Shown here: positions 1,941 through 35,198 of the stretch, in pieces
Layout: every line of letters begins with the position of its first letter
Numbering within the stretch: the first letter of the stretch is position 1
Virus record (IMG/VR): IMGVR_UViG_3300048858_000128
Location: 1-62,635 of that record
Direction: 5' to 3' (one strand)
DNA from: a virus
Lineage: Duplodnaviria; Caudoviricetes
DNA length: 62,635 nucleotides
Program-made: the position numbers and the translations under genes
The notes under the pieces: model-generated
The model's database searches: none
The model's input: only the letters and a program-made list of their open reading frames with translations
Told to the model about the DNA's origin: nothing

Positions 1941-2039
1941 CCGCACGTCCTGCGCAGACGCCTGTTCAATAACACGCGCCTCTTATTGCAACAATCCGCC
2001 ATTTCCAGTAATTAGAACGTGACTGCGCAAGACGTGCTG
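1941..2039. promoter_or_regulatory. Divergent late control region (lysis / capsid) with two GCGC-A(N)4-GTGC hairpins
   Basis: CTGCGCAGGACGTGCGG on - (1941-1957) and CTGCGCAAGACGTGCTG on + (2023-2039) flank an AT-rich core. Confidence 0.65.
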
Positions 2040-2066
2040 ATTGTCCTCAACAGGAGATTGGCACTC

Positions 2067-3167
2067 ATGGCCCCCACGACAGTCCCCTTCGGCTCCCCTC
2101 TCGCCGTCAAAAAGTGGTCCGGCAGCCTCATGGTCGACACCATGCGGAAGAGCTATTGGGACCGCAAGTTCATCGGCGAAAGCGACGAATACGCGATCCA
2201 GCGGCTCACCGACCTCGAATCCGATGCCGGCGACACCATCACCTTCGACCTTTCCGTCCAGCTCCGCGCCAAGCCGACTTATGGTGACCAGCGCCTGCAG
2301 GGCAAGGAAGAGAACCTTCGTTTCTTCTCGGACGAGATCAAAATCGACCAGATGAGGCACGGCGTCTCCGCCGGCGGCAAGATGAGCCGCAAGCGCACCA
2401 CGCACAACATCCGAAAGATCGGCAAGGACCGCCTCTCGGATTACTGGTCCAAGTTCACCGACCAGATGATTTTCATCTACACCGCCGGCGCGCGTGGCAT
2501 GAATGAAAACTTCATCGAGTCGACGGATTGGACCGGCCACGCCACCAACCCGATCCAGGCTCCCGACACCGACCATATCCTCTATGGCGGCGACGCGACC
2601 AGCAAGGGCTCCATCGACGCCGCCGACAAGATGACCAAGGCGACGATCGAGAAGGCCGGCGTCAAGGCGAGCATGATGGCCGCCACCACTCCGGAAAATG
2701 CCCAGATGATGCCGCTGATGATCAATGGCGAGAGCCATTACGTCTGCGTCATGAGCAAGTTCCAGGCTCACGATATGCGCACCGCCGATACCAGCGGCTG
2801 GCTGGAAATCCAGAAGGCGCTCATCACGGCGGAAGGCAAGAACACCCCAATCTTCAAGGGTGGCCTCGGCATGATCAACAACACCGTCCTGCATGAGCAT
2901 GAGGACGTAATCCGCTTCTCGGATTACGGCGCCGGCAACAACGTCGCGGCCGCTCGCGCTCTCTTCATGGGCCGCCAGGCTGCCGTTATTGCCTTCGGCT
3001 CCACGGGGGGCTTCCGCTTCTCTTGGACGGAAGAGATGCAGGACCACGGCAACGAGCCGGTGATCTCGGCCGGCCTGATCGTGGGCGTCAAGAAGACCCG
3101 GTTCAATAGCCGCGACTTCGGCGTCCTCGCTCTGGACACCGCCGCAAAAGATCCCAACGCACCCTAA
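2067..3167 (+). CDS. Major capsid protein, N4-gp56 family
   Basis: LESDAGDTITFDL, GKEENL, IDQMRHGV, IFKGGLGMINNTVLHEH, LFMGRQA motifs; CAGGAG RBS. Confidence 0.92.
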   Translation: MAPTTVPFGSPLAVKKWSGSLMVDTMRKSYWDRKFIGESDEYAIQRLTDLESDAGDTITFDLSVQLRAKPTYGDQRLQGKEENLRFFSDEIKIDQMRHGVSAGGKMSRKRTTHNIRKIGKDRLSDYWSKFTDQMIFIYTAGARGMNENFIESTDWTGHATNPIQAPDTDHILYGGDATSKGSIDAADKMTKATIEKAGVKASMMAATTPENAQMMPLMINGESHYVCVMSKFQAHDMRTADTSGWLEIQKALITAEGKNTPIFKGGLGMINNTVLHEHEDVIRFSDYGAGNNVAAARALFMGRQAAVIAFGSTGGFRFSWTEEMQDHGNEPVISAGLIVGVKKTRFNSRDFGVLALDTAAKDPNAP

Positions 3168-3224
3168 CCGTTTGGCGGGCCTAGCTCGCCAAACTCCCCC
3201 TTTATCACGGCCAGGAGACTTTCG

Positions 3225-3680
3225 ATGGCGCTCATCCAGAGCAAATACTCCAAGGGCATTGTCCTCGCGCCCTTCCCGGCTTTCGCCGGCCACGTCGTTG
3301 CGCATCGCTTCAGCCACATCTTCACGGCTGCGCCGGCACTCAACGACATCCTTGAACTCGCCCCTATCCCGGTCGGTTGCCGCGTCATGGATCTGATCCT
3401 CGATGCCGATGACATGGACAGCGGCACTGTCCTCACCTGCGACGTTGGCGTCATGTCCGGCCTCTTTGGTGTCAACGACAACGCTCGCACCGTCGGCGCC
3501 GAGTTCTTCTCCGCTTCGGCGCTCCTTCAGGGCGGCGGTGTTGCCCGTCCGACCTTGAAAACCGCGTTCCGCGTAACTCCCACCGACACCACCCGCGGGA
3601 TCGGCATCAAGATCACCGGCAGCATCGCGACCTTCACGCCCGGCGAGATTGGCCTCACCGCCTACTACGCGACCACGTAA
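3225..3680 (+). CDS. Virion structural protein (possible capsid decoration)
   Basis: Immediately after the capsid gene; beta-rich 151 aa; AGGAG RBS. Confidence 0.6.
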   Translation: MALIQSKYSKGIVLAPFPAFAGHVVAHRFSHIFTAAPALNDILELAPIPVGCRVMDLILDADDMDSGTVLTCDVGVMSGLFGVNDNARTVGAEFFSASALLQGGGVARPTLKTAFRVTPTDTTRGIGIKITGSIATFTPGEIGLTAYYATT

Positions 3681-3702
3681 CCGAGCCGCCTTTGCACTTC
3701 GA

Positions 3703-3736
3703 TGGGGGGCTCGTGCGCGAGGCCCCCTCTTTTTTG
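3703..3736 (+). terminator. Rho-independent terminator after the capsid genes
   Basis: GGGGGCTCG...CGAGGCCCCC stem followed by TCTTTTTT. Confidence 0.65.
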
Positions 3737-3748
3737 AGAGGAATTGGT

Positions 3749-4027
3749 ATGGCGCTCATTCAATGCAAGCTCGGGCCAGGCGAACGAACGGTTGGAAGCG
3801 ACACATATGCTTTCCGTACCGACGAGCACGGCAGAGCGGTTGCCGAGGTACCTAACCTCGCCCACCAGATCTGCTTTCTTTCGGTCGAGCATTATCTCAT
3901 CGCTCCGGAGCTCCCGGCGTCGACCCCGCTGGACCCCGATGGGCAACCGGCCTCGCCTCTGTCTCCCCCGCAGCCACCCGCCGCTCCGGTAGTGCCGGCA
4001 CGTCGCGGTAAGCGTCGTCAGGGGTAA
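3749..4027 (+). CDS. Hypothetical protein
   Basis: GAGG RBS, ATG at 3749, within the head operon. Confidence 0.65.
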   Translation: MALIQCKLGPGERTVGSDTYAFRTDEHGRAVAEVPNLAHQICFLSVEHYLIAPELPASTPLDPDGQPASPLSPPQPPAAPVVPARRGKRRQG

Positions 4028-4029
4028 CG

Positions 4030-4710
4030 ATGAAGGCGAAGGACATCATGCTTCGCGTCTCGGTCGATCTTCTCGACAGCGATCACGTGCGTTGGCCGCT
4101 CGACGAGCTGGCGCACCACATAGAGGACGCGGTGAAAGCGATCATCGTCGCCAAGCCATCGGCCTCGAGCGGACTCATGGAATTGACGCTGGCGAAAGGC
4201 ACCAAGCAGGCTGTGCCCGACAATGTCGTTCAGCTTCTTGACGTCGTTCGCAACATCGAGGGCGCGAACGGTGCCGCCGGCCGTATGATACGTTCAGTTT
4301 CCCGAGCCGAACTCGATGCGAACGCTCCCAGATGGCACGATCCGGCCTATGTGCCGTTCCGGCGCGAGGTGCGGCATTTCGTGTTCGACGAGCTGCTGCC
4401 CAAAAACTACTTCGTTTTCCCAGGCAATGACGGCACCGGCCGGGTAGAAGCTGCCGTCTCAAAGCTACCGCCGCTGATCACCGAGCTGCAGGACGGAGAC
4501 GTTACGGACATCGAGACGTGGGACGTCGAAGTCGGCATCGATGACCAATATCAGCCCGCGGTGCAGGATTACGTTCTCTATCGCGCCAACAGCAAGGAAG
4601 ACACGGCAGCAGATCCGGGCAAGGCGGTTCGGCATTTTCAGGCCTTCGCCACCGCGATCGGCATCCAGTCACAGGTCGAAAGCTCCACCAGCCCGGGACG
4701 GAGGAAGTAA
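4030..4710 (+). CDS. Head-tail adaptor-like virion protein
   Basis: VRWPLDEL, LAKGTKQ, DYVLYRA.SKE motifs typical of podovirus adaptors; position. Confidence 0.7.
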   Translation: MKAKDIMLRVSVDLLDSDHVRWPLDELAHHIEDAVKAIIVAKPSASSGLMELTLAKGTKQAVPDNVVQLLDVVRNIEGANGAAGRMIRSVSRAELDANAPRWHDPAYVPFRREVRHFVFDELLPKNYFVFPGNDGTGRVEAAVSKLPPLITELQDGDVTDIETWDVEVGIDDQYQPAVQDYVLYRANSKEDTAADPGKAVRHFQAFATAIGIQSQVESSTSPGRRK

Positions 4711-5336
4711 TGCCCCAGATGTTGGACATCGACGACTTTCTGCCGGACGCGCTGCGCTACGCTCCGAATGTGAGCGACCTGGTTGCCCAGCGATGCGTCA
4801 TCGCCGCAGCGCGAGAGTTCTGTGAGCGGCTGAAGCTATGGCGCGAAGACGATACGTTCCCAATCACGGCGCCCGACATGCAGGGTCTTTCTACCTACCG
4901 AGACGCCGACATCGTCAGCATCGAGTCCGCAAGGCTGGACGATCATCCACTAGAACCGAAGCCGATCGCCTGGCTCGATGCCAATTGCCCGGGTTGGTCT
5001 TTCGAGACAGAGAACGTCGGCTCTGCTCGTTACGTCACTCAGCTTGAACCGAATACGGTGACGGTTGTTCCGCGTGCCACCGGCACGATGAAAATTCGCC
5101 TTGTGCTGAAACCGGCCCGGGACGCCTTCTCGCTGCCGGCCTTCCTCCTCAACGATCATGGCGAGACGATCAGCCGCGGCGCCGCTGCCAAGATCCTGAC
5201 CGAGCCCAACTCCGACAATCCTCAGCTGGGCCTCGACCATCGCGCATGGTTCGAAGCGAAGCTCGACAATTTGGCCGTCAAGGCAGTCAGGGGCCAACAA
5301 GGCGCCCCGCTGCGCACGAGAGGAGCATATCTCTGA
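4710..5336 (+). CDS. Second adaptor-like virion protein
   Basis: AAREFCE..KLWR motif; coupled to the previous gene. Confidence 0.6.
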   Translation: MPQMLDIDDFLPDALRYAPNVSDLVAQRCVIAAAREFCERLKLWREDDTFPITAPDMQGLSTYRDADIVSIESARLDDHPLEPKPIAWLDANCPGWSFETENVGSARYVTQLEPNTVTVVPRATGTMKIRLVLKPARDAFSLPAFLLNDHGETISRGAAAKILTEPNSDNPQLGLDHRAWFEAKLDNLAVKAVRGQQGAPLRTRGAYL

Positions 5337-5752
5337 TGCCAGCCACCACTTATGCCGGCAACGCTATCCTCAACCTTTTCCTCCGCGGCGTCGCGCTTGC
5401 CCCTCCGACGCGCGTTTACGTCTCGCTTCACACGGGAGATCCCGGGCTGACAGGCGCGTCCGAGGTTACAACTGCCGAATGGCCTTCCTACGCTCGTCAG
5501 GACGCGGCGCAAGGCGGCGCGGTCGGCACTGGCTTCCACGCCTCGGCGTCGAAGGCATCAGAGAACGCCCTACTCATGTCATTCGGTGACAACAACGGCG
5601 CCGTGCCGGTGATCGTTACGCACTTTGGGATCTGGGACGCACCGACCGCCGGAAATTGTATTTTTGTCGGCGAACTCGATGATCCGAAGACTTATCTTCC
5701 GTCTGACGAGGCTGTCGTGCGGCAGAACGCCATAACGATCACGGTGGAATGA
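5336..5752 (+). CDS. Virion/tail structural protein
   Basis: YVSLHTGDPG, THFGIWDAPTAGN motifs. Confidence 0.7.
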   Translation: MPATTYAGNAILNLFLRGVALAPPTRVYVSLHTGDPGLTGASEVTTAEWPSYARQDAAQGGAVGTGFHASASKASENALLMSFGDNNGAVPVIVTHFGIWDAPTAGNCIFVGELDDPKTYLPSDEAVVRQNAITITVE

Positions 5753-6249
5753 TGATTTCCAACGGATCAGTGAATGGAAATGCGGTCAACGGCTACCCCT
5801 TGAACGGCGGTGGGTTCGTTGCGGAGGTGGCCGGCTCGGCGATCGTTGCCGTCTCTCCCGCGGGTGAGGCTAAGGCCCGTCGCATGGCTGCGGGATCAAC
5901 CGCGGTCGACATCGCTGGCCGGTTGATCACGGCGATCACCGGCATTTCCCCGGTTTCGATCGTGGTGTCCGGGTCGATGACGGCCCGGCGCCTCGCCACG
6001 GGCGCCAGCGGCGTTGCCATTACGTTCACCGGCTTTGCATTGCGGCGCCCCATCGCAAACGGGCGTGCCTTGATCCGCCTAATTCCTTTTGGCCAGGCAG
6101 GGTATTCATATCTCCGCCCGACGATGCGTAACCGCCGCAACGTCATCACTGAAAATCGCCGGACGCTTGTCCGCAGCGAAGATCGATCCTTTCCGATCCA
6201 CGCAGACGCGCGTCGAATCGTTGTCCCGCGCGAGTCGGAGGCCCGATGA
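5749..6249 (+). CDS. Tail-region protein
   Basis: Overlapping start/stop coupling within the tail operon. Confidence 0.55.
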   Translation: MMISNGSVNGNAVNGYPLNGGGFVAEVAGSAIVAVSPAGEAKARRMAAGSTAVDIAGRLITAITGISPVSIVVSGSMTARRLATGASGVAITFTGFALRRPIANGRALIRLIPFGQAGYSYLRPTMRNRRNVITENRRTLVRSEDRSFPIHADARRIVVPRESEAR

Positions 6250-6527
6250 GCACGACCATTCTGACAAAGGCTCCCGCCGACGTCCTTGACTACGATTTCG
6301 ATTTCTCCCGCTGGATGCCGTCTGGCGACCGCATCACAAACGCAATCGCCTCCCTGGCCGGCACCGGCGCGATCGTCACCGACGTCGAGTGGTCAGACCT
6401 CGTGGCGAGGATCTGGCTGTCCGGCGGCGCCAACGACGAAGCAGGAATTCTCGCCATCCTCATCACGACCCATGCCGGTCGTACCAAGGAAGTCACAGCA
6501 AGCGTGCGCATCAGGGAAGACGCTTAA
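6246..6527 (+). CDS. Fibre-tail adaptor-like protein
   Basis: KAPADVLDYDFDFSRW...IWLSGG...TTHAGRT motif. Confidence 0.7.
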   Translation: MSTTILTKAPADVLDYDFDFSRWMPSGDRITNAIASLAGTGAIVTDVEWSDLVARIWLSGGANDEAGILAILITTHAGRTKEVTASVRIREDA

Positions 6528-7784
6528 ATGGTTCTCAAAATTGCAAACAATGCGGTTTCCACTCTCGCCGCTTCAATCAACACCAGCGTAACCAGCCTTG
6601 CGCTGGCATCGGGCGATGCCGGCAAATTTCCAACGCTCGGCGCCGGCGATTGGTTTCCCCTGACCATCGTTGACCCGTCTGGCAATATGGAGATTGTGAG
6701 AGTGACCGCGCGAAGCGGGGCGACCCTCACCATTGTTCGAGCGCAGGAAGGTACCACGGCAAAGGCATTTGCTGCCGGCTCAAAATGTGACCTCCGCCTC
6801 ACGGCCGCTGCTTTGGCCGTGCTCCCGATCGCTGCCTCCGCCGTCACCGGGCTCACGGAACTGGTTGATACCTCCGTCGGGGCTGTCGTCGGTGAACCGC
6901 CGGAAGAGCTCGACACCCTCGAAAAGCTGGCCGGTGCGGTAGGAAATAACCCGACCTTCGCCCAGACCGTTACCACTCAGCTTGGGCAAAAGGCAGCTTC
7001 TGCCGATGTCTACACGAAGGCGCAGGTCGACGCGGCAATCGGTGCTGTTCAAGGCGTTCCATCCGGTATGATGACGCCCGGCGCAATGGCGACCGCTCCT
7101 ACTGGCTGGTTGAAGTGTAACGGTGCTGCGATAAGCAGAACGACTTACGCCGCACTGTTTGCAGCGCTCGTTACGAACGCAGGGTTCACCCAACAGGCGT
7201 TCACCGTCTCGATCGGTTCGCCGGGTCTTTTCACAAAAGCCGCTCACGGCTTTTTTGGCGGCGAGCGCCTTCGCTTAAGCACAAACGGCGCGCTGCCAAC
7301 GGGGTTGAATACAACCACCGACTACTTCGTCATCTTTGTCAGTGTCGACACGTTCTATTTGTCGACCTCTGACATAGCACCTGTCCCTATCAACACTTCA
7401 GGAACGCAGTCGGGGACACACACTTATCTGACGAGTTTGTGGGGACTTGGTGATGGGGCCACGACTTTCAACCTTCCCGATCTTCGCGGTGCATTCATTC
7501 GTGGGATGGAGGGATTTGGTCGAACCCTCGACGGTGGACGATCCATAGGTTCGTTCCAGCGAGATGCCATGCAGCCAATTACCGGTAGTGCGGGTGGCAC
7601 TCTGCCCGGCGCCGCCAACGGGGCATTCTTCTACTTCGGCGCGGCTACGGATTCGTGGAGCCGAGGCGGCGGTAGCGGCACGGCCACCGCATCGCGCGTC
7701 GACTTTGACAGCTCCAGGCAGGTCAGGACAGCGGCTGAAACCCGCCCTGTCAACGTCGCGGCGCACTACTTCATCAAGATCTGA
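6528..7784 (+). CDS. Tail fibre protein with tail-collar domain
   Basis: EIVRVTAR...RAQEGT N-terminus, ELDTLEKLA, GWLKCNGAAISRTTYAALF...FNLPDLRG collar, ETRPVNVA C-terminus. Confidence 0.9.
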   Translation: MVLKIANNAVSTLAASINTSVTSLALASGDAGKFPTLGAGDWFPLTIVDPSGNMEIVRVTARSGATLTIVRAQEGTTAKAFAAGSKCDLRLTAAALAVLPIAASAVTGLTELVDTSVGAVVGEPPEELDTLEKLAGAVGNNPTFAQTVTTQLGQKAASADVYTKAQVDAAIGAVQGVPSGMMTPGAMATAPTGWLKCNGAAISRTTYAALFAALVTNAGFTQQAFTVSIGSPGLFTKAAHGFFGGERLRLSTNGALPTGLNTTTDYFVIFVSVDTFYLSTSDIAPVPINTSGTQSGTHTYLTSLWGLGDGATTFNLPDLRGAFIRGMEGFGRTLDGGRSIGSFQRDAMQPITGSAGGTLPGAANGAFFYFGAATDSWSRGGGSGTATASRVDFDSSRQVRTAAETRPVNVAAHYFIKI

Positions 7785-7795
7785 GGAGGCGGAAG

Positions 7796-8419
7796 ATGGA
7801 TATTTATCACTATCACCCTGTGAGCGGCTTCTTTGTGGCGATCGGACAGGCTGATCCTGACCCTCTCGGAAACCCTGAAGGCGACCTTTCCCTGCCGTTT
7901 CTCATTCCGGCGTATGCGACAACCGTTGCGCCGCCGGAACCGGTCGCAGGTAAAGATAGGGCGTTTCGGGACGGCGCTTGGACCTATCTCGCAATCGCGC
8001 CTCCCGTCGAAGAGCCGGAACCAGAAGTATTTCCACCCTCGTCAGATGATGTAGACGCCGAACGCGATCGGCGCATAGCCGCCGGCTTCACATTTGAGGG
8101 CGTCCTCTACCAGGCCGACGAAGAGGCACGTGAGAACATCATGGGTGCGCACAAGGCCGCATCTGACGCGATGATGCTTTTCGGCGCAGAGGCCGGGAAC
8201 CTTGCGTGGCAGCAGCTCCTCGATCCGCACGCGCCGGCGGAGTTCAAATGGATCGCGGCGGACAATTCGCGGGTCTCCATGGACGCGCCGACCGTCCTGC
8301 GATTTGGCTATGCCGCTTTGGGCCACAAGTCCCGGCATATTTTCGCGGCGAGTGACCTAAAGAGCATGAGCTCGATACCCTCCGATTACGCTAGCAATCC
8401 GGCTTACTGGCCGATCTGA
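7796..8419 (+). CDS. Tail fibre assembly/chaperone-like protein (DUF4376-like)
   Basis: FLIPAYATT..PP, VDAERDRRIAAGF, WIAADN motifs; follows the fibre gene. Confidence 0.75.
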   Translation: MDIYHYHPVSGFFVAIGQADPDPLGNPEGDLSLPFLIPAYATTVAPPEPVAGKDRAFRDGAWTYLAIAPPVEEPEPEVFPPSSDDVDAERDRRIAAGFTFEGVLYQADEEARENIMGAHKAASDAMMLFGAEAGNLAWQQLLDPHAPAEFKWIAADNSRVSMDAPTVLRFGYAALGHKSRHIFAASDLKSMSSIPSDYASNPAYWPI

Positions 8420-8438
8420 CCGTCCGAGGTGAATATTC

Positions 8439-27200: not shown

Positions 27201-27263
27201 GCCGAACAGGTTCAGCGGGTCTTTGAGGTCGAAATCTTTGCCGAGGCCGATGATGATGGGCAT
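18255..27263 (-). CDS. Giant polyvalent / DarB-like virion protein (3002 aa): lysozyme-like, inorganic-pyrophosphatase-like, PBECR-type RNase, JAB-like and PLxRFG regions
   Basis: WRNNNPGNI (~26850-26890); GNYK...IENPAGSER..HYGYIRGT.G.DKDHID (~23430-23900); IDLVWG...GLAKL...WLLTAFE (~22165-22520); HE...HNHP...S.PD (~21580-21870); YFPLSRFG (~20340); AAGGAG RBS. Confidence 0.88.
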   Translation of the reverse strand: MPIIIGLGKDFDLKDPLNLFGDKASSEKAVGINPATSSAASDAAEATAKPVESPSVDAAPRTRPADQSSEVTTEPARESPFDAILKPETPEVNTAGYSTVVAAGKGWTEVVGADGEVIRRKGTRAWRNNNPGNIEYGQFAKGLGAIGTDGRFAVFPTYEAGRRAKESLLFDSKGYRDKTIYQAISRYAPPSENNTDSYASSVATAAGVSIDTPLAELSARQRVAVLDAMERVEGFRPGREIVGGVVRQGETPSSAATAYVDPIVSAPNSRARASSSGSAGAGSIVIDETFKPADGLGVFGTAENPFATMAAEQAAKAAATKEAVANQFEENRNNAFTERHNDDVGQRAAVLEAENPGRYQTIDEDQLPDWQARWEEANRSSGVLGDTGRILKSGVIGIGQSLSSIADTVFSRLPGGETFLKASDDIDRWVLGNTLDKKMENADTAARASVTPAQADADAKNWWDEDRGWFGPAWRDPRSYLRAVGESAPGTVVTMLPGGILARGAYVRAIAGGATQRAAAATAARTATLSGAILEGGMAAGDSAKNVRDRIAALPRDQLMQSDAVRSMIEGGMSEGDAIKAVSEDAASQAFLISGVATGMFGGLGDRALAKIIAEGVGGGVARRIVAGGVRGAVAEGILEEAPQGAAQAISENAAVQRVDPNQSLTEGVGEAVASGIAAGGAMGGAMGGAGGAARPASPESIPGVDPGTAAPAPQPAGPISRAVQRADEAIAVRTPQVAPAAPAPTDGRPEVGATVRIDADGIEPFMGRIDGYEGDEAVVIDSGSGEIYQIPIGNLTQIAKSAETIERENPRDVGPVPIDDSLPEFSNDPALEPLAPIGTEVTSEGLPPRDQQKPATERFPTAPEAGQRVIVDDKNGGRFAATISTWTDGGQEAVVKDEAGREYQVPADSLFISNQTEKQVEADELKRTPPVEREAAEMTPTRRRVGDKTVELPDEKHARLFDLARERFVSKKTLGASQLDMESVDNPELKRLAREFGVTTTALGAMADDYRYRVERAGKEARSKLPVKMPPVNERRLRQWQNELAKQQPEATDRADDLSHWWDVELTAQGRKQVLDQAGVKRSERVMWQHLTPAIRNKLAATRPARDTSEVGADFAVHDAATSPTNDLPEPTQAQKEAGNYKVGRMRLAGLDLSIENPAGSERKGTDSSGKPWSVKMRSHYGYIRGTVGRDKDHIDTFIRPGTPELDDSAPVFVVDQRSANGRFDEHKVMIGFDTEAAARAAYLENYTAGWKGLGDVSPTTMGDFKAWLKSGKTTEPFSKMADGSRDKTTNARFAGERPGTRSSKPRIAKRARRPQSLFDFLAAEGGLRDDGGELAHMGLKRRFVPGRGALVRSGGVPLDKAREAAAQAGYFDHLYGTADDATAKSTVRDLLDLIDQEARGGKAYSLADSDLLRASEEYEAQLAGRADYQRFVREIAATLSDLGGDFAVDEAVLARAAEYMVEEDLSPLDAFDRAVLEDEAKFEASLSDRPPEPVVDGKQSSIPFFGDELAGTQEPVRGLVEEGGDGERNGRSGDAEDSRKSSSPGGLEEPADGLDNDASPIKPSSVALETTSEEEVASGPFGPILRGFEGRWREAALELEKRQTGDAIGALNHPDVGPIDLVWGNAGTNASNGAGLAKLLAWHPEVLGDLQGFINRLHVDKDRSTTKRIQLRDESGNAGIRLDFDGTAKTWLLTAFEKGSRRTERSSRRLSDLWGDQAAPTPPRAEETIAPQSAEVESRKAPALPPAEENGFAEPYEDASATSPDQRRPDPKIRVTRNDLRELDPPARPEGVRLNDWARDSVVTAGKQKGHEYLMAVDADGTVVSYGTAGDPSYTGMNDRLFSAMSNPDRRLVMFHNHPRNGPLSAPDIGLLSMPGVHSVWAFGHNGSSARAALTPVARARITDGGSGTSARELQAALETAAMSPKDVVRAAERARRIDPEGADIAARHIPSLLAARAGIIDMKSDAAYDPAEIKGLKEAIDRAALGLAKEYSDGGKSSARVRRSTDGVGSTRAVEGVGEVRQQLGAGSGKDGLSEGGARDDQAEKRLWKEVDRDFAPAAATKENIVGRVKDALSGKFHDAQPGLLAAVPLNYFPELAGDKIPAISDYLLVKRKMDAYRGKKHDAAAALADRWRKYISLGYRRGYGVGAALVDKSRAAELADLMHEATLAGIDPSLTTDEEKAKSGYQALRKKFTALPPVGRELFQGVRDAYREQADELDELLLDNVRKAQELAAQHAERRYKEELADIAASAIDPVARRRAEENAASKYKAERTKGQWASKARMTRLRQQFESNRVAPPYFPLSRFGDYYVTARRPIRDADGKITGSDVLHFSRHETKADANRVLKEVSREINGAEIETGRMSKNGEIRKVMDPRVVGDIERLLADSGVGDDVRDALYQRWLTTFPDLSMRKRFIHRKGIAGFNKDAFRAFGSAMFHGAHQMGRLKYGLELQENVNRAEEQAKDFEDNTREMALVNELNLRDKWVRNPGGNAFVNYANSAAFIWYMGFSPAAAIVNASQTWMMGVPLLGAKFGIGKSAAALLTASREFAVGRGDLKKGGLSREEKAAMDAFYESGLIDRTQSHDLAAVSETGTTYDPIRAKVMRAASWGFHNVEVFNRSVTALAAYRLARDAGYDHLDAINVAHERTYSTHFDMTNSSRPRIMQRPEFKFTLMFRSYQVNMLYRLFRDVHQAVKGESRQARREAVTQLAGTVGMMGLMAGATGTVGYGLAMAAASLLSGIFGDDDDPMSMEDRFKAGVIRTLGPELGGIFLYGAPGHYLGIDLTARIGMPDLWFRSPDRDLEGKAEWEYYVLNSLGAGVSMIGSMFEAYKVTTDDSSVARGIEIAAPKAVRDLMKTWRFAWDGVTTRAGDEVVAPGELSTSNLISQSLGFTPAKISETYDRASALKNAEAKINDARRSAINSFAKAVEDKDPEARAAAFEEIRKFNTNPAHRPVAITSETLKRSLSTRAKNRVKREDGALIQNEALGQQLRKQLPERVY
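21101..21277 (-). CDS. Nested 58-aa gene in the +1 frame of the giant gene (candidate immunity protein for the JAB-like domain)
   Basis: AAGGAG 7 nt before the ATG; globular-looking MAENQVRGFVDPPTEWAPLEQWKEWEK... while the host frame is a low-complexity linker. Confidence 0.7.
   Translation of the reverse strand: MAENQVRGFVDPPTEWAPLEQWKEWEKSVSNWEPDPERTAYLKEAREMIRQKSASGKK
22048..22076 (+). promoter_or_regulatory. Antisense sigma70-type promoter inside the giant gene
   Basis: TCGACT-N17-TATCGT with extended -10 TG (TGCTATCGT). Confidence 0.55.
22084..22168 (+). ncRNA. Predicted four-way-junction (tRNA-sized) antisense RNA
   Basis: 10-bp closing stem GCTCGTGGCG/CGCCGCGAGC, three internal hairpins, then CCTTTT; begins 7 nt after the -10 element. 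Confidence 0.5.
22595..22771 (-). CDS. Nested 58-aa helical gene in the +1 frame of the giant gene
   Basis: GGAG 10 nt before the ATG; amphipathic ELKSRSEAWLKRAE...EMRRIAGNLRLLAAL; host frame is a disordered linker. Confidence 0.55.
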   Translation of the reverse strand: MENKAVSHSSATSSQELKSRSEAWLKRAETVSETDAQEMRRIAGNLRLLAALKNRQTV

Positions 27264-27264
27264 G
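27208..27264. repeat. Direct repeat copy 1 (5' end of the giant gene)
   Basis: About 50/57 nt identical to 28659-28714. Confidence 0.85.
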
Positions 27265-27356
27265 CGTGCGGGCTCCTTTGAAGAGCCGCACTGATGCGCG
27301 GTTAGACACCGGAATTTATAGGCTGACGGCGCGTGAAAGGGAAGCCAGAACCGGCG

Positions 27357-28415
27357 TTAACCCATGGTGTGCTGGGCGTCGTATCGATGGGCTGCCGGTT
27401 TGGGAGCCGAGACGTCAACGCCCGGGGCGTGGAAGGCATACGTGCCATCAGGCTGCATCCCGAAGGCGCGCGCCAGACGACGATTTACCAACACTCGGTT
27501 CCGTCTGAGCCGATTCACGAGCTCCGCTTCGCCGGGGAAACCCTGCGCAACGGGTGCAGGGGGACAACGGGCAAGATCCGCAGCAAGCGCCGATATGTCG
27601 TCCTGAAGCCCATCAAGGAAGCTGGCCGGCCTGAAAGACGAGCGATCGACGTTCGCAACCAGGTCGATCGCCTTCGTCCGATAATTCGCGACGAACGACA
27701 TTAGATCCTGATCGGAGAGCTCGAGCTCCGGGGAAGCCGGGTTGCACGAGATACCCAAAGCCCCGAGATCGCGCATGATCTTCGTTCTGTAAGACTGCGT
27801 GGGGAACTCGGAGAGCTTCTGGCGCAGGCCTTCCAGCCCGAGGAAAGGGATATGAAGCAGACCAAGGCCGCTATCGGTTCTCAACGGCCGGATCTGGACC
27901 AGCAAACTGTCCGCGAGCGGGTACTTGGCGTTGTGGTTGCCCATGACTGGCAGGATGTCCCGGAGATTCCGGAGATTATAGATCAGTTTGCGGGTGCTGC
28001 TGCGCCAGGTGGTGAAGAGGAGCTTCCCCTGCCCGTCCAACGGACCAGCAGATGGGGGGAAGCCATTGCGCCACCTCATGGAGGTGACGGCGGTACCGCG
28101 GTGCTGTTCCATGAATGCAGAGAGGTCTGCCTTGGCCTTGAAAGGCAGGAACTCGTCGGCATCGAGCAGGAACAGGAAGTCAAATTCCCGCTTAAGATCC
28201 AGCTTTTTGAGGAAGTATGCTGCATAGAGCTCTTGAGCAAAGAGGCCGGCAGAAACCCTGAAGACTTCGATACCGTCCCTGGCAAGGCCGCTCAACTGCC
28301 GGTCGCTGTTGTGGTCGATGATGATGATCTTGTCGACGAGCCGCTGGTGGTGAGCAATGAAAGCCGGAAGGTACCCGAATGAGTTCTTCACTTGGACTAC
28401 AACCACCGACCGCAT
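27357..28415 (-). CDS. Glycosyltransferase family 2-like protein (surface-modification moron)
   Basis: FIAHH...VDKIIIIDHNSD, LFLLDADEFL DxD motif, GNH, LLHIP; AT-rich upstream region. Confidence 0.85.
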   Translation of the reverse strand: MRSVVVVQVKNSFGYLPAFIAHHQRLVDKIIIIDHNSDRQLSGLARDGIEVFRVSAGLFAQELYAAYFLKKLDLKREFDFLFLLDADEFLPFKAKADLSAFMEQHRGTAVTSMRWRNGFPPSAGPLDGQGKLLFTTWRSSTRKLIYNLRNLRDILPVMGNHNAKYPLADSLLVQIRPLRTDSGLGLLHIPFLGLEGLRQKLSEFPTQSYRTKIMRDLGALGISCNPASPELELSDQDLMSFVANYRTKAIDLVANVDRSSFRPASFLDGLQDDISALAADLARCPPAPVAQGFPGEAELVNRLRRNRVLVNRRLARAFGMQPDGTYAFHAPGVDVSAPKPAAHRYDAQHTMG

Positions 28416-30481: not shown

Positions 30482-31522
30482 CTAATCAGGCAGTCGGTAG
30501 ATCTCCGAGGTGTCATCGGGATCGCGCAGCCCCTTGAACGACGGATGCCGCAGCTTCCCATCATTCGTCCAAGCCCGATACTCGACCTCGGCAACCAACC
30601 CAGGGGCCGTCAGCACGAGGTTCTTCCCCGGCACCTTCACAGGCGGCACTTTCGTCTTGAGCTTGTCGAGCTGCTTCTTCAGCGACCGGGCCACATCGTG
30701 TTTGAACCCGGTCCCGACACTGCCAACGTATTTGTACCCGTCCCGGTACCGCGCACCGAGGAGGAGGCTCGCGATGGCGCCGGGAAGCGCCGTCGACGGC
30801 TCATAACCGATGATGGCGAAGTTGTCGCTCTGGATGCACTTGATCTTCAGCCAGTCCCCCGTCCGCCCGGAACGGTACGGCCGGTCGCGATGCTTGGCGA
30901 TGATGCCTTCCAGGCCAAGCCGGCAGGCGTGCACGAGGAAATCACCCGGGTCTGCTTCGAGCTCTTCCGAGATCCTGATCGCCCCGCCCTGCTCGTCAAG
31001 TGTATCCTCAAGAAGGTGCCGGCGAGCCTCATATTCCAGCCCGCGCAGATCGTGCCCGTCCAAATAGAGCAGATCGAAGGCGTAGAGGATGGAGTTCCGT
31101 GACGGCAGCTTGCCGCCGGCCTTGCCGGAGGCGCCTAGGGAGTTCTGCAGCAGGCCGAAGTCCGATCGCCCCTGCTCGTCGAGCACCACTGCCTCGCCAT
31201 CGAGGATCATGGTGGTAGGGCCGAGAGCCTTCGCAGCATCGGCGATGGCTGGGAACCGGTGCGTCCAGTCATGGCCGCCGCGGGTGATGATGCGGACGCC
31301 GCCGGGCTCGATATGCACAGCCAGGCGGTAGCCGTCCCACTTGATTTCGTAGGACCATTCATCGCCGTGGGGCGGCTTGCTCTTCAGGAGAGCCAGGCAA
31401 GGCTCGACCCGATCGGGCATGGGATCGAAAGGAAGATGCGGCTGCTTCGGATCGCGCCGCTTGACCGGCCGGCTTTGCAGCGGCGCAGTTCCCCCGTGCA
31501 AAAGCGGCTTGGCTCGCCTCAC
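30482..31522 (-). CDS. ligD: ATP-dependent DNA ligase, LigD ligase domain (NHEJ type)
   Basis: EIKWDGYR, ILDGE, AFDLL, EGIIAK, YRSGR..DWLKIK, LRHPSFKGLR. Confidence 0.92.
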   Translation of the reverse strand: MRRAKPLLHGGTAPLQSRPVKRRDPKQPHLPFDPMPDRVEPCLALLKSKPPHGDEWSYEIKWDGYRLAVHIEPGGVRIITRGGHDWTHRFPAIADAAKALGPTTMILDGEAVVLDEQGRSDFGLLQNSLGASGKAGGKLPSRNSILYAFDLLYLDGHDLRGLEYEARRHLLEDTLDEQGGAIRISEELEADPGDFLVHACRLGLEGIIAKHRDRPYRSGRTGDWLKIKCIQSDNFAIIGYEPSTALPGAIASLLLGARYRDGYKYVGSVGTGFKHDVARSLKKQLDKLKTKVPPVKVPGKNLVLTAPGLVAEVEYRAWTNDGKLRHPSFKGLRDPDDTSEIYRLPD

Positions 31523-31930: not shown

Positions 31931-32007
31931 GTTGGACCGCGACCAAGGCGGTTTATCCACAATCGATCCGCAGCCTTATGAACACGCTCCGGCGTGAAGG
32001 AGAAGTC

Positions 32008-32352
32008 ATGTCTAAGGGCGACAATGGCCTGAGGCATCTGGGGGAGCCCATCTGCGCCAAGTGCGGCGGCGGGCTGATCTATGAAGGCGACGCGCCGGCC
32101 CCAGACGACATCATCGAGTGCGAGAACGCGAAGTGCGGGCGCAAAGGCACCTATGCCGAGGTGACGGCCGACTGCGAAGCGATCTACGCGCAGTTCCAGG
32201 ATTGGTATCTTCAGCAATCCGCTCTGGGCGGGCCGACAATGAAGGAGATCCGAAGATGGAAGCCCAAGGGCAAGCGCAAGTTCACGATGAAAATCGTGGG
32301 CGCTGGTAAGGCCGGTGACCTCAAGCGGGATTTCAAAGCAATCGAGCTGTGA
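32008..32352 (+). CDS. Zinc-finger hypothetical protein (SOS operon gene 1)
   Basis: AAGGAG RBS; CAKC...CENAKC. Confidence 0.7.
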   Translation: MSKGDNGLRHLGEPICAKCGGGLIYEGDAPAPDDIIECENAKCGRKGTYAEVTADCEAIYAQFQDWYLQQSALGGPTMKEIRRWKPKGKRKFTMKIVGAGKAGDLKRDFKAIEL

Positions 32353-32651
32353 CATCTGCTTGGAAGAGGAAATACCGTTGGGTGCGGACGTGGCCAGGCG
32401 AAACGGGCCTAAATGGTAAGCTTCATGAGGACTATGTCGGCTTTGACGGGAAAACGTATATCGGGAGGATCTATCTCGACCAGCAGACCCTGAAGGCCGG
32501 GAAGTGGCGCTGGGCAGGTGGAATGCCGGAGAAGTGCCGCATGATGATGATGCCGAATAGCGGATGGCTTCCGACGGCTGCCGAGGCGGCGAAACAGGTC
32601 GAGGACTATTGGGATGCTATGCTTGCAAACATCGGGATACACAAGAAATGA
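32349..32651 (+). CDS. Hypothetical protein (SOS operon gene 2)
   Basis: GTGA overlap; Trp-rich YRWVRTWPG...IGRIY...WRW. Confidence 0.75.
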   Translation: MTSAWKRKYRWVRTWPGETGLNGKLHEDYVGFDGKTYIGRIYLDQQTLKAGKWRWAGGMPEKCRMMMMPNSGWLPTAAEAAKQVEDYWDAMLANIGIHKK

Positions 32652-32836
32652 GCGATGAACGCACTGCCACTCACCCCGCTGCGCCGGTGCATTTCGAGCA
32701 TTGGTGCGAGCATCCTGGCTGCAAAGAGTGGGGCGGGTTCGGCTTTGAGCGCGACAAGAGCAAAACGGATTGGTTTTGTTTCGAACATCGGCCGGCCCGC
32801 TACAGGGGTCTTACCTTTGGAGGAACCGACCAATAA
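32648..32836 (+). CDS. Small Cys/His protein (SOS operon gene 3)
   Basis: ATGA overlap; HWCEHPGCKEWG...WFCFEH. Confidence 0.7.
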   Translation: MSDERTATHPAAPVHFEHWCEHPGCKEWGGFGFERDKSKTDWFCFEHRPARYRGLTFGGTDQ

Positions 32837-32991
32837 ATGCAAAAAAGCCCCGCCGCTCTGTTTGGGCCGCGAGGCTTGAGGTCCGCCATCGATTGTGCAG
32901 TGACAAGCTACCACAACCCATCGGTTGGGAAAAGCCAAAAATTACCTGGGCATTCTGGCAAGCAGTCTCGCGATAACGTGGGCCGCTGACG

Positions 32992-33738
32992 TCAGGCGGG
33001 AAACGCCACAACCTTCGAAGGTGAGGAATCGATCCCGCCCATCAGCATGCGGTATTCCGCCTCCGGCCTGCCATACGCGTCATGCGCGAACTCTTCGAGC
33101 GCCGCCCTATCTCGGACGATGACCCTCCCTCGTACGGAGCGGATCAAGCCATTTCCCTCAAGCACGTGAAGTGAACTGGTGACACTTGGCCGACGCACGG
33201 ACAACATGATCGATATGTAGTCGTGAGTGAGCTCGATCTCGTCTCCGTCTATTCGATCGTGGCACATCAGAATCCAGCGCGCCAAGCGTTCGTCCACGTG
33301 GTGGACCGCATTTGACAAGCCGGTAAAGGAAACCTGGGTTGCAAGAGTCTGTGCATACCGCATCATGAGATTGGCGAGCGCCGGATTAGCATCCATCGCG
33401 GCTTCGAACAAAGCGATGCCGATACGGTGGCCGCGGCCGGAGACTTGCATGACGATCTCATGGCCTTGGGTTGACGGGCCGACAAGGGCCTGAACCGGCG
33501 CAAACCCGTCACGGCCAAACAAACCTGCCTCGACCTTGTTACCCTCCGGTGAGACCGCAATCACGGAGCCAATCCCAGACTCAGGAAAGTACACATGCTT
33601 GATCGGAGCGTCCAACCGGGCGAGTGAAAACGTCCTTGGGAGCTCCACGCGCTCCAGTCCGGCGAAGAACTGCAGATCTTCATCTGTCATCAGAGACAGG
33701 AGGCGGTTGTGAAGGGACGACTTATGTGGGGCGGGCAT
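32992..33738 (-). CDS. Crp/Fnr-family transcriptional regulator
   Basis: NRLL, VYFPESG, ERLARWILMCHDR, LTHDYISIMLSVRRPSVT HTH. Confidence 0.92.
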   Translation of the reverse strand: MPAPHKSSLHNRLLSLMTDEDLQFFAGLERVELPRTFSLARLDAPIKHVYFPESGIGSVIAVSPEGNKVEAGLFGRDGFAPVQALVGPSTQGHEIVMQVSGRGHRIGIALFEAAMDANPALANLMMRYAQTLATQVSFTGLSNAVHHVDERLARWILMCHDRIDGDEIELTHDYISIMLSVRRPSVTSSLHVLEGNGLIRSVRGRVIVRDRAALEEFAHDAYGRPEAEYRMLMGGIDSSPSKVVAFPA

Positions 33739-33898
33739 AGCTCTCTCCTCTATGGGGCAAGAGCGATGAATGTTCTCCTAGCCGTCCGCGCCCGAAGAAA
33801 CTGCAAAACGATAATGTACTATAACCGCTGATAGTGGCCTCGATGTGTTCAGGCCCGGTTCAGAAACCGCTTTAACGGGAGCAGGCTTTCCAGGCGCG

Positions 33899-34027
33899 TT
33901 ACCAGCCGATCGCTACCAGGATGAGGGCGAGTGTTTCTTGGTGGCCGAAGACGAGAACGGCCGTGAGCAAGGCGATCGCGACGAGCGCCGCGATCACAGC
34001 GCAGCTGAAGCGGAGCACGTCCGTCAT
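33899..34027 (-). CDS. 42-aa membrane peptide
   Basis: MTDVLRFSCAVIAALVAIALL..., start overlaps the upstream stop. Confidence 0.5.
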   Translation of the reverse strand: MTDVLRFSCAVIAALVAIALLTAVLVFGHQETLALILVAIGW

Positions 34028-34269
34028 CAGTCTTCTTCCTTGCGCTCGTAGTAGCGCATGAAGTCCGTGATCGCATTGAACGGATGCTTGCGCATCCCGC
34101 CGTACTTCGGAGCCATCGCTTTGCCGAATGGCTCAAGATCGATGGTTTCATCCCTCACGTGTTTGGCGAAAGCGAACCAGAATTTGGCAAATTGCTCCGG
34201 ATCTTCAGCGAGAGCCTTCGCCAAGTCATCGGGACTGACATCAAGGTCAATACGGACGGTGGCCTTCAC
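34027..34269 (-). CDS. Hypothetical protein
   Basis: Coupled ORF. Confidence 0.6.
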   Translation of the reverse strand: MKATVRIDLDVSPDDLAKALAEDPEQFAKFWFAFAKHVRDETIDLEPFGKAMAPKYGGMRKHPFNAITDFMRYYERKEED

Positions 34270-34475
34270 GCCTGCGCCTCCGCAACGCCTTCCTTCAGCA
34301 GCTCGTCGGGCTGAACCTCGTGGATCAGGAGATCCTGCCCGCTGTGGACGTAGAAGGTGTTCTCCCGGTTCTTCTCGACGCGATGGACCGTGCCGAGCTC
34401 GCCGGTTACGGGATTGACCGGCGTCACATCGACGGGCCAGCCATGGTTTGCTGCTACTTTGACTGTGGTGGTCAT
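34266..34475 (-). CDS. Hypothetical protein
   Basis: GAGGA RBS; MTTTVKV.ANHGWPV. Confidence 0.7.
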   Translation of the reverse strand: MTTTVKVAANHGWPVDVTPVNPVTGELGTVHRVEKNRENTFYVHSGQDLLIHEVQPDELLKEGVAEAQA

Positions 34476-34492
34476 TTTCAGATCCTCAATGA

Positions 34493-34520
34493 AAAATGCC
34501 CGCCGGACGGATCCAGCGGG
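34493..34520 (-). terminator. Rho-independent terminator
   Basis: GCCCGCTGGA-loop-TCCGGCGGGC followed by ATTTTT on the - strand. Confidence 0.6.
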
Positions 34521-34547
34521 CGCCCTTGGGAGGGGATTATTACCGGC

Positions 34548-34871
34548 TTAGCAGCGCCGCCTGACGTCGATGAAACTGAGGCCGTGGGTGTCGTAGCTCT
34601 CGGCGTATTTCGGGGCAAAGCTGCCGAACGTTCGCGAACTGATCGGCCGCGTGTCGTCCGCCTGGGCGCGGTGAACGATGGCGATGTGCTGTTCGTGACC
34701 GACCGCATCGACGAGGAAGCCGACGTCGATCGGCGAGAGATACGCCGGCTCCATCACCGCATAAGGATTGATCTCGAGGCGGGCGACGGCGGACGCCGGC
34801 ATGATGGTGAAGGCGAGTGTGCAGGCTAGGAAACCTAGACTGAGGCAGAGAATGCGGGGAAATCGGACCAT
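34548..34871 (-). CDS. Hypothetical protein with signal-peptide-like N-terminus
   Basis: Hydrophobic N-terminus ending PASA. Confidence 0.5.
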   Translation of the reverse strand: MVRFPRILCLSLGFLACTLAFTIMPASAVARLEINPYAVMEPAYLSPIDVGFLVDAVGHEQHIAIVHRAQADDTRPISSRTFGSFAPKYAESYDTHGLSFIDVRRRC

Positions 34872-34977
34872 GAACGTGCCTTTTGGATGGGTGGGGCGCC
34901 GTGGCAGTCACGCACTCGACTGCATCTGCTAATTCGCACACGGCGCCCCTTGCTCTCGGGGTGTTATGGGGCTCGAC

Positions 34978-35054
34978 TGGTTGCGCTGGCAGGATTCGAA
35001 CCTGCGACCTTCAGGTTATGAGCCTATCGAGCTACCGGGCTGCTCCACAGCGCT
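34978..35054 (-). tRNA. tRNA-Met(CAT), initiator type
   Basis: 77-nt cloverleaf AGCGCTG...CTCATAA...GGTTCGAATCC...ACCA; 1:72 mismatch and A11-U24 pair typical of fMet. Confidence 0.9.
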
Positions 35055-35198
35055 TCTCAGTCGTCATGGTCGAGGTGATGGGGTCGTAGCGCGTTTGTCA
35101 ACGGGCGCTGCGTTCTTCCACCGCGTGACGCGGCGGGCTGAAAATCCGAGCACTAATGCGCTCGTAGTCTTGGGGAAATAGTTAGGCGCGACGCGAGG

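Follow-up and report, generated by a model that had tools for sequence, protein, structure and literature searches.

The 62,635-nucleotide (nt) virus record IMGVR_UViG_3300048858_000128, which is called the window below and always taken at its full length, is a complete 62.6-kb record flagged as a provirus, with approximately 60% G+C. It belongs to a temperate phage whose closest named relative is Agrobacterium phage Atu_ph08, and it encodes, besides an endolysin and a major capsid protein, internal virion proteins, a portal and a terminase. Five short hairpins, s1 to s5, are dispersed over both of its strands (Table 1): four of them precede the genes of the endolysin, of the capsid protein, of a 376-amino-acid (aa) ejection-type virion protein and of a 3002-aa giant protein, and the fifth lies between a tRNA gene and a gene coding for a 63-aa protein that resembles the regulator CsrA. 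We propose that the hairpin-bearing leaders are RNA switches with two alternative folds, one of which would hide the start site, and that they are read by the CsrA-like protein; we put the probability of this explanation as a whole at roughly 55%.

Table 1. Hairpins, leader segments, upstream patches and associated genes in the window (SD, Shine–Dalgarno sequence; MFE, minimum free energy; bp, base pairs)
Feature	Position	Strand	Remarks
Amidase-type endolysin	1388–1918	−	
Remainder of s1 leader: anti-SD, SD (GGAG), pre-start segment, ATG	1916–1940	−	Predicted to pair with the hairpin 3′ arm in the ground state; MFE between −14.9 and −20.6 kcal/mol according to the segment chosen for folding, −11.9 when the short hairpin is imposed
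Hairpin s1, CTGCGC-AGGAC-GTGCGG	1941–1957	−	Endolysin ATG (1918) 24 nt after the end of the core; model score 26.0 bits
TTGCAA-17 nt-TAATTA block upstream of s2	1986–2014	+	Possible promoter by visual reading; conserved in relatives
Hairpin s2, CTGCGC-AAGAC-GTGCTG	2023–2039	+	One T.T mismatch; major capsid ATG (2067) 29 nt after the end of the core
Remainder of s2 leader: anti-SD GTCCTC, SD AGGAG, pre-start GGCACTC, ATG	2040–2069	+	Complementary to the loop and 3′ arm
Major head (capsid) protein	2067–3167	+	
AT-rich patch TATATTATAA upstream of s3	10863–10872	+	In relatives, (C)TATAA(C/A) 9–16 nt before the core
Hairpin s3, GTCGCGC-ACGAA-GTGCGAC	10884–10902	+	7 bp; core ends 24 nt before ATG 10924
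Alternative helix of s3, GTGCGACCTC / GAGGTTGCAC	10896–10926	+	10 bp, encloses the SD and abuts the ATG; fold z-score rank 1 of 86
Virion (ejection-type) protein, 376 aa	ATG at 10924	+	Hairpin-led
DarB-like polyvalent virion protein, 3002 aa	18255–27263	−	Hairpin-led
Alternative helix of s4, GTGCGGCTC with GAGCCCGCAC, CAT with ATG	27261–27290	−	Fold z-score rank 2 of 86
Hairpin s4, CCGCGC-ATCA-GTGCGG	27286–27301	−	Core ends 24 nt before ATG 27263 (3002-aa protein)
AT-rich patch CTATAAATT upstream of s4	27313–27321	−	11 nt upstream of s4; TATAAC/TATAAA in relatives
tRNA-Met	34978–35054	−	Downstream of s5; sole tRNA in the window
Hairpin s5, GAGCGC-ATTA-GTGCTC	35148–35163	−	No competing helix, the hairpin is the MFE structure; 16.5 bits
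Divergent CsrA-like protein (P0001), 63 aa	35199–35390	−	Last gene of the terminase–portal–322-aa run; ends 35 nt upstream of s5

An earlier note on this DNA had described five hairpins sharing the core GCGC-A-N3-4-GUGC, with one G.U pair, at the head of late transcription units, and all five are indeed present, at the positions and on the strands that it gave. It had also claimed that the pairs flanking the core stay complementary; they are formed in 9 of 10 positions (P 0.001), the exception being the T.T mismatch of the capsid site, which had already been pointed out. The giant gene behind s4 is there too, and it can be further identified as coding for a DarB-like polyvalent virion protein, which contains regions of transglycosylase, peptidase-like, methyltransferase and DarB-like helicase type. 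As for s5, it had been described as heading the tRNA: it does lie 93 nt before tRNA-Met, but it also lies 35 nt after the stop codon of the 63-aa gene. The signal is common to virion and lysis units that are dispersed over both strands, in agreement with the idea of a scattered late region.

The number of copies does not by itself set the motif apart from a shuffled background: the core GCGCA-N3-4-GTGC has 7 matches in the window versus 3.48 ± 1.96 expected, and 11 of 100 shuffles reach 7. Since the count alone is not significant, placement and conservation are needed as evidence. The placement is not random, and the motif is not equally frequent in coding DNA, since five of the seven matches are intergenic while intergenic DNA makes up 14% of the window according to the gene map (binomial P 9.5e-4). 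Moreover, in four cases a start codon of the same strand follows, its distance from the end of the core being 24, 24, 24 and 29 nt, where 0.03 such cases are expected (Poisson P 4e-8). When one mismatch is allowed in the core, the scan of the window returns 11 matches, which are the five sites and six positions in coding DNA, and no further intergenic copy. With a covariance model trained on 66 distinct hairpins, the top ranks go to the five sites (26.0, 25.6, 22.8, 22.4 and 16.5 bits, the next match being at 13.3), although these sites or near-identical copies of them are in the training set. MAFFT misaligned the five 110-nt contexts, which were anchored on the core instead. A scan of the window against Rfam gives the tRNA as the sole match above the gathering score, and a permissive scan of positions 1880–2100 returns chance-level matches only. 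We consider it very probable that the hairpin is a real RNA element.

Two other positions of the window deserve mention. At 15150–15171 on the minus strand, where the gene calls are uncertain, CCGCGC-CGAA-GTGCGG may be a degenerate sixth copy, with the same arms and the G.U pair and a loop that lacks the leading A (12.8 bits, E 0.59). At 27541–27561 on the plus strand, an exact core lies in a perfect 8-bp stem (CCCTGCGC-AACGG-GTGCAGGG), antisense to a glycosyltransferase-like gene (27357–28415); with 9.6 bits, a poor score for the model, and neither an AT-rich patch nor a start codon nearby, this copy is probably due to chance.

The element is kept at orthologous leaders in 17 other phage genomes, which comprise Rhizobiales relatives, Bcep22-like phages and the F116-like phage LKA5. 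It is found in all 35 capsid leaders that were examined (that of the window and those of 34 loci whose capsid proteins are between 99% and 48% identical to it; locus L040, whose upstream sequence is cut off, is left out of this set). In ten complete or near-complete relatives, the motif recurs at the orthologous leaders of the endolysin, capsid, ejection and giant genes. The identical 12-mer GCGCATGAGTGC is present three to five times per genome of approximately 60 kb in seven of these ten (including G003–G007 and G010), while G001 and G002 have mixed loops and G008 has the variant GCAC-AGGAY-GTGY. Further away, the hairpin is present in the capsid leaders of BcepMigl, PEp14, Itty13 and SJM3, and as ACGC-AGGA-GTGT in that of Cimandef; at the protein level, the capsid of the window is 59–63% identical to those of Bcep22-like phages (BcepMigl, PEp14, Itty13, Ralstonia phages, SJM3), approximately 32% to those of 933W-like and Vibrio phages and approximately 26% to those of F116-like phages. 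In PEp14, Itty13 and SJM3 the hairpin also heads endolysins of the muramidase type, which are unrelated to the amidase of the window. In LKA5, GCGCAGGAGTGC occurs three times: 26 nt before the ATG of gp48, where it lies inside the 3′ end of the csrA-like gp47, right after the stop codon of gp48, and 25 nt before the ATG of gp53.

In two relatives, the 12-mer GCGCATGAGTGC is also found at another place, at positions 961–972 of G003 and 285–296 of G004 (loci L131 and L127): its loop holds the start codon of the integrase (ATG AGT GCT TTG ACG GAC, for M S A L T D K Q I K), and it is preceded by three tgtgggtatc repeats. A protein binding the loop at this site would mask the start of the integrase, judging from the sequence. 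The window record itself ends exactly at the ATG of its own integrase.

The short hairpin (fold A) consists of an invariant 4-bp core with 0 to 3 further pairs, and its energy ranges from −4.3 to −8.7 kcal/mol. In the set of 66 distinct hairpins, two pairs outside the core are each formed in 46, with 5–6 pair types, and none of 500 shuffles reaches the covariation score; in the same set, the third pair out from the core receives no support from covariation. The G.U pair is kept in 63 of the 66, replaced by A-U in two, and in one the wobble is shifted by one pair, to the adjacent position. In the loop, the A, G and A at positions 1, 3 and 4 are identical in 64 hairpins while positions 2 and 5 vary freely; C-A stands at the 5′ side of the loop in 65 and G-U at the 3′ side in 65. 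Such a mixture of fixed and free loop positions points to sequence-specific recognition, beyond the mere requirement for pairing. The hairpin also occurs by itself, with no competing helix, at s5 and in the leader classes MALPSVHI and MARAIPNV. We regard the existence of the short hairpin as moderately well supported.

In the leaders of s1 to s4, the MFE structure is a long helix (−17.6 to −23.1 kcal/mol) and not the short hairpin; the view that the hairpin is the stable structure is not supported, since it is a minor conformer in the predicted folds. In this alternative structure (fold B), the loop and the 3′ arm of the hairpin, together with an anti-SD segment, pair with the SD, with the bases before the start and often with the AUG itself. 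The pairing partners covary: the capsid-leader loops AGGAC, AGGAT, AGGAA, ATGA and ATGAC are matched by the pre-ATG bases GTCC, ATCC, TTCC, TC and GTC, respectively, the loops and pre-start bases of four paralogous leaders of G009 covary likewise, and in the orthologues of s3 at loci L045 and L046 the arm has T in place of C, with a matching replacement of G by A before the ATG. The set of leaders used for statistics contained 75 distinct members selected by an automatic rule, of which 7 in coding sequence or at unrelated loci were dropped. Over the remaining 68, the pairing energy of the hairpin segment with its own start region is −11.45 kcal/mol on average, versus −9.20 ± 0.27 when the partners are permuted (none of 5000 permutations reaches the observed value), and the hairpin segments pair with 82 other start regions of the window with −5.9 kcal/mol. 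The four leaders of the window rank 1, 2, 5 and 8 by fold z-score among 86 genes, and the start region of the capsid gene is the least accessible of the 86.

In 63 of the 68 leaders the predictions give fold B as the ground state, and the short hairpin is part of the MFE structure in 5. Forcing the short hairpin has a median cost of 6.9 kcal/mol and decreases the number of paired bases between −14 and +3 from 12.7 to 7.0 out of 17; given this cost, something would have to stabilise the hairpin. Among the three functions suggested earlier for the signal, a translational switch fits best with the fixed spacing to the AUG and with the covariation of the loop and 3′ arm with the pre-start sequence, and it is quite probable that the element is a two-state switch based on start-site occlusion. 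We note that another SD-sequestering hairpin (GTGCTGC.CTCCTT / GAGGA.TGCAGCA), without fold A, lies right before the ATG of an early-region gene of 84 aa (leader at 56240–56290, gene at 56285–56539, plus strand).

A self-contained leader would need no dedicated protein: the long helix would throttle or time translation, or stabilise the mRNA, and the short hairpin would be a co-transcriptional kinetic trap or a temperature-sensitive element. A brief period of translation that is permitted by a kinetic trap is described for the maturation gene of MS2. This hypothesis accounts for fold B being the ground state in 63 of 68 leaders, for its covariation, which requires no protein, and for the short hairpin being transcribed first and being weak, as expected for a transient structure. 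On the contrary, the core and the A, G, A of the loop are constant in 64 of 66 hairpins across phages of Rhizobiales, Burkholderia, Erwinia, Klebsiella and Pseudomonas, where a pure structure should drift, and some hairpins (s5, and those that follow a stop codon in G001 and LKA5) lack either the competing helix or a gene start downstream. We consider a leader acting purely in cis to be unlikely.

The sequences upstream of the hairpins bear on whether the signal is read in DNA or in RNA. The earlier note had seen an AT-rich, −10-like patch before each hairpin; the patch is there, at 8–15 nt and not at 10–20 nt as had been stated (TATTGA and TAATTA 8 nt upstream; TATATTATAA, CTATAAATT and TAACTATTTC 11–15 nt upstream). 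A scan for Escherichia coli-type promoters, the consensus being that of E. coli, calls none at these five places, and a search for RNA sequencing runs that contain positions 1500–11400 listed none. The block TTGCAACAATCC (1986–1996), halfway through the intergenic region between the divergent endolysin and capsid genes, is conserved across relatives; TTGCAA, which is palindromic and also present on the endolysin side, could be a shared −35 element or the site of a regulator, judging from its letters. Between s5 and the tRNA, at 35055–35110 on the minus strand, TTGACA, which relatives keep, is followed 12 nt later by CCCCATCA, and there is a GCCGCG-tca-CGCGGT hairpin, so that the tRNA may have its own promoter there.

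A DNA site, be it an operator or promoter-proximal element for a late activator or a hairpin of the non-template strand acting in early elongation, would explain why the motif, an imperfect inverted repeat, stands just downstream of conserved AT-rich patches. Against it, the element is strictly sense-oriented, as the earlier note had also claimed for an RNA signal, and its halves stay unequal (GCGC versus GCAC), with the G.U pair retained as described above. The distance from the hairpin to the AUG is held (23–30 nt in most leaders) while that to the AT-rich patch ranges between 8 and 16 nt; the element covaries with the start region; and copies located directly after a stop codon (G001, LKA5) or in coding sequence (LKA5 gp47) have no such patch. 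This makes a DNA site very improbable.

Antitermination had been the first of the functions suggested, and a 4–7-bp stem with a purine-rich loop of 4–5 nt does have a superficial likeness to boxB. In the nut site of lambda, a short hairpin with a purine-rich loop in the leader RNA is read by the small phage protein N. The N system acts on elongation through terminators, whereas the element described here keeps a set place relative to the ribosome-binding site and has no terminator downstream: a terminator scan calls no terminator-like site in the stretch that separates each hairpin from its gene, nor does it call any of the five hairpins as such, s5 being followed only by GGAUUUUC with no call of the U tract of an intrinsic terminator. 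No N-like, arginine-rich protein appears in the PHROG and Pfam scans, which covered part of the genes, and no N-like partner was identified. Given that the element is tied to start codons, a nut hairpin for N-type antitermination, a terminator or an attenuator is hardly credible.

If a protein stabilises the short hairpin, the 63-aa protein encoded next to s5 is a candidate. It looked CsrA-like by eye before any profile was tested. A word-index protein search found 2 relatives only, while an exhaustive search with hidden Markov models gathered 80. With a profile of 74 sequences, RsmE (2jpp) is matched with E 6.4e-14 and CsrA structures with E around 1e-10, colinear from residue 1; 57 of the 74 family members match the Pfam CsrA family (PF02599), and the alignment by hhalign of the group of the window with five phage proteins annotated as "CsrA-like regulators" has a probability of 96.8% (E 3e-10). 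The AlphaFold (AF2) model, whose input alignment contained CsrA-like sequences, has a mean predicted local distance difference test (pLDDT) of 85.8. When this model is compared with the PDB using Foldseek, CsrA, RsmE or RsmA chains occupy every listed rank down to 15, with template modelling (TM) scores of 0.43–0.80; 12 have a probability of 0.98–1.00, and the nuclear magnetic resonance entry 1y00 has 0.35. The root-mean-square deviation is 1.1–1.2 Å over 44 columns for three chains, and the E-values, for such a small protein, are 0.04–0.93. The model thus predicts the CsrA fold, with a core of five beta strands and a C-terminal helix, and we conclude that, at the level of sequence profiles, this is an unannotated, divergent CsrA-like protein.

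The csrA-like gene is located at a conserved place. The order portal, gene of approximately 300 aa, csrA-like is the same in BcepMigl, PEp14, Itty13, Cimandef and SJM3, with an extra 125-aa gene before csrA-like in Cimandef; a hairpin-bearing capsid leader of approximately 100 nt directly follows csrA-like in four of these five, and the 99-aa gp31 intervenes in Cimandef. This shared slot in the Bcep22-like phages makes s5 look like a hairpin that was left beside csrA-like after the capsid gene moved in the lineage of the window. In the distant LKA5, the csrA-like gp47 is inside the structural operon; LKA5 also has a second CsrA-like gene outside that operon (17084–17233 of its record, minus strand, locus L242; E 8e-14), which is possibly the rsmM-type allele mentioned in PMC7366521. 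In the window, the small terminase subunit is encoded on the minus strand and its gene abuts the replication-side genes, so that csrA-like belongs to a long leftward run without a hairpin of its own.

The hairpin and the csrA-like gene occur together in 18 of the 18 genomes that have either (the window, G001–G010, Atu_ph08, the five named phages above and LKA5). Phage 933W and Vibrio phage K248 have the same order portal, scaffold, capsid; there, only 23 and 20 nt precede the capsid gene, and neither a csrA-like match nor the motif is found in these two phages. Across lineages, a comparison by eye of the loop type with the sequence of strand beta-5 of the CsrA-like protein reveals no pattern.

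The hairpin could also be read by something else: a host ribonuclease (for processing or protection of the 5′ end), another RNA-binding protein or an unrecognised phage protein. Many genes of the window have no assigned function, the CsrA-like protein lacks the canonical arginine, most loops lack GGA, and a hairpin close to the likely 5′ end could guard against decay that depends on this end. Conversely, the sequence of the motif is constant across host classes, which suggests that its reader travels with the phage, and csrA-like is the one small gene of RNA-binding type that is present in all 18 genomes with the motif, and it is absent from the two relatives without it. RNase III requires longer stems than the competing stems seen here, which are short, with 10–17 interrupted pairs. 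Another reader is, in our opinion, rather improbable.

What is known of CsrA gives a basis for comparison. The site obtained by SELEX is RUACARGGAUGU, with conserved ACA, GGA and GU and stems of mostly 4 pairs or fewer; high-affinity loops are ANGGAN, and L4 and R44 are the critical residues of the protein (PMC7652899). A single CsrA dimer can bridge sites that are 10–63 nt apart (PMC7652899). CsrA activates ymdA by opening an SD-sequestering hairpin, its site being next to and within that hairpin, and it protects the 5′ end of flhDC (PMC7652899). The phage hairpin, C-A-N-G-A-N-G-U on a short stem, resembles the SELEX site by its 5′ C-A, its central G-A and its 3′ G-U; in s1 to s4, the SD (GGAG or GAGG) located 12–18 nt after the hairpin is, as far as sequence goes, a second GGA within bridging range. 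As in the leaders controlled by CsrA or RsmA, those with repression of the glgC type included, a small RNA-binding protein, dimeric in the case of CsrA, would read a short hairpin, and the ymdA leader resembles those of the window in having the SD hidden by a structure that binding opens. Differences are also clear: the phage loop A-N-G-A is one G short and the closing A-U is replaced by G.U, the protein of the window lacks R44, the regulator and its targets are both encoded by the phage, and no antagonist small RNA is known.

Homologues of csrA have been catalogued in 30 phages, Bcep22-likes included, and S. meliloti has been reported to lack a chromosomal csrA (PMC7366521); the latter observation argues for targets within the phage. 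PBC5 and Atu_ph08, in which the csrA-like gene is annotated as merely hypothetical, do not appear in the main text of PMC7366521. The "CsrA-like regulators" of the Bcep22-like phages BcepMigl, PEp14, JC1 and DC1 are homologous to the protein of the window and occupy the same slot. That of JC1 has been called a moron acting on the host, one of its peptides being found in virions (PMC9144972); the words "hairpin", "stem-loop" and "promoter" do not occur in the text of that article. The knockdown of the csrA homologue of PTXU04 results in smaller plaques, and its role is said to be untested (PMC11879866). In contrast to what we propose, no cis target is described for the Bcep22-like proteins or for that of PTXU04, which are treated as host-directed morons, and our search of the literature, supplementary tables and the 2011 Bcep22 paper being outside its scope, yielded neither an account of the hairpin nor a cis target assigned to any phage CsrA.

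We therefore set out the favoured mechanism, in which a leader module of approximately 45–55 nt would set the translation of the endolysin, major capsid, ejection/virion and DarB-like giant genes. In the free RNA, the closed fold B would shut the ribosome-binding site. Fold A, with its GCGC/GUGC core and its loop A-N-G-A-(N), would strip the base of the long helix and free the AUG. The CsrA-like protein, produced from the long leftward operon that has no hairpin, would bind the hairpin and hold fold A, which would turn on the dispersed late genes together; it may also protect the transcript. From the sequences compared here, it seems slightly more probable than the converse that the CsrA-like protein reads the hairpin. 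If it does bind, activation is rather more plausible than repression, because the capsid protein is required in large amounts although no leader of the genome is more closed than its own, and because the regulator is encoded outside the hairpin-led units. Should the sign be the opposite, a dimer bridging the hairpin and the SD GGAG would repress translation. Binding by the protein, the sign of the regulation and the positions of the transcription starts are all inferred.

Several observations weigh against this explanation. Regarding the RNA, a mismatch adjoins the 4-bp core in 20 of 66 hairpins, so only part of the hairpins have the extended stem; fold B is weak or absent (−2.5 to −6.3 kcal/mol) in the MALPSVHI and MARAIPNV leader classes, which, like s5, have the hairpin without a competing helix; and in PEp14 and SJM3 the competing helix stops before the SD and leaves the AUG uncovered. 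A GGA is present in one of the five loops of the window (and in 13 of the 66 distinct hairpins, whereas 64 have A-N-G-A), and the loops of s4 (ATCA) and s5 (ATTA) do not have even a single G. A hairpin separated by 12–18 nt from an SD GGAG is also the classic layout of CsrA repression. Regarding the protein, the link with CsrA rests on iterated profiles, on a model derived from that same alignment and on synteny: a Pfam scan with the single 63-aa sequence gives no match, and a profile of 7 sequences reaches RsmE with E 0.68 only, among noise. L4 is kept, but the position aligned with R44 is a leucine (..QKITLVPL..), the arginine of the family consensus being one position earlier. The csrA-like gene of G008 was missed by the profile search and recognised by eye in the syntenic slot. 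Lastly, the co-distribution has no exceptions but is statistically weak, as it reflects few independent evolutionary events.

Start-site occlusion has precedents in phages. In the Com–mom system of phage Mu, the start site is covered by an inhibitory stem-loop until a small protein, bound immediately 5′ of this structure, makes the site available. Unlike the CsrA-fold protein that is proposed here for four or five leaders, Com is a zinc finger that acts on one gene; no Com-like protein was noted in the window, in which no search aimed at Com was made. In the maturation gene of MS2 and in the early transcripts of gene e of T4, an alternative fold hides the SD and the AUG; these cases differ from ours in that no sequence motif is common to several genes and many phages. 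Two other candidates were rejected. An N4-type hairpin promoter for a virion RNA polymerase was discarded since the families matched by the 3002-aa protein are DarB-like, transglycosylase and methyltransferase ones; its similarity to a virion RNA polymerase family is confined to the N-terminal, non-polymerase part of that family (E 3.7e-15). A mini open reading frame (ORF) starting at the AUG of ATGA loops was set aside too, the loops of the window having no AUG and the frames not being conserved.

Other genes of the window may be mentioned. The small terminase subunit corresponds to the minus-strand ORF 41043–42056 (PHROG E 1e-51), where a codon-usage caller had picked the plus-strand ORF 41127–41873; as drawn, it overlaps the gene of the large subunit by 83 nt, and its true start may be further in. 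Accessory genes at 43389–44198, 44673–46523, 30482–31501, 32992–33738 and 52014–52442 encode, respectively, a PAPS-reductase-like protein, a DNA methyltransferase, an ATP-dependent DNA ligase, a Crp-type helix-turn-helix regulator and a tellurite-resistance-like protein. A 107-aa protein (34548–34871, minus strand) that is encoded downstream of s5 and the tRNA has a signal- or lipobox-like N-terminus (..LGFLAC..) and a strong terminator behind it (34521–34498); it looks like a lysogenic-conversion moron.

Homologues of csrA are conserved in many podophages, among them phages of Burkholderia, Pseudomonas, Klebsiella and Ralstonia. What they do in the phage life cycle is described as untested (PMC11879866), and most often they are dismissed as morons directed at the host (PMC9144972). 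We tentatively suggest, at slightly less than even odds, that in Bcep22-like, PBC5/Atu_ph08-like and F116-like podophages they are instead dedicated regulators of the late proteins of the phage itself, acting through a private site that is one G short (GCGC-A-N-G-A-GUGC). If this is true, a protein-operated RNA switch synchronises dispersed late genes, even in hosts that have no Csr system. The present analysis supplies a defined and conserved candidate RNA target, and a mechanism that is open to binding and reporter assays. Even if the link with CsrA fails, there is a widespread two-state leader, supported by covariation and absent from Rfam, that would gate the most abundant virion proteins and the lysis enzyme, and it would help to annotate late leaders as well as the csrA-like genes that are labelled hypothetical in phages such as PBC5 and Atu_ph08.

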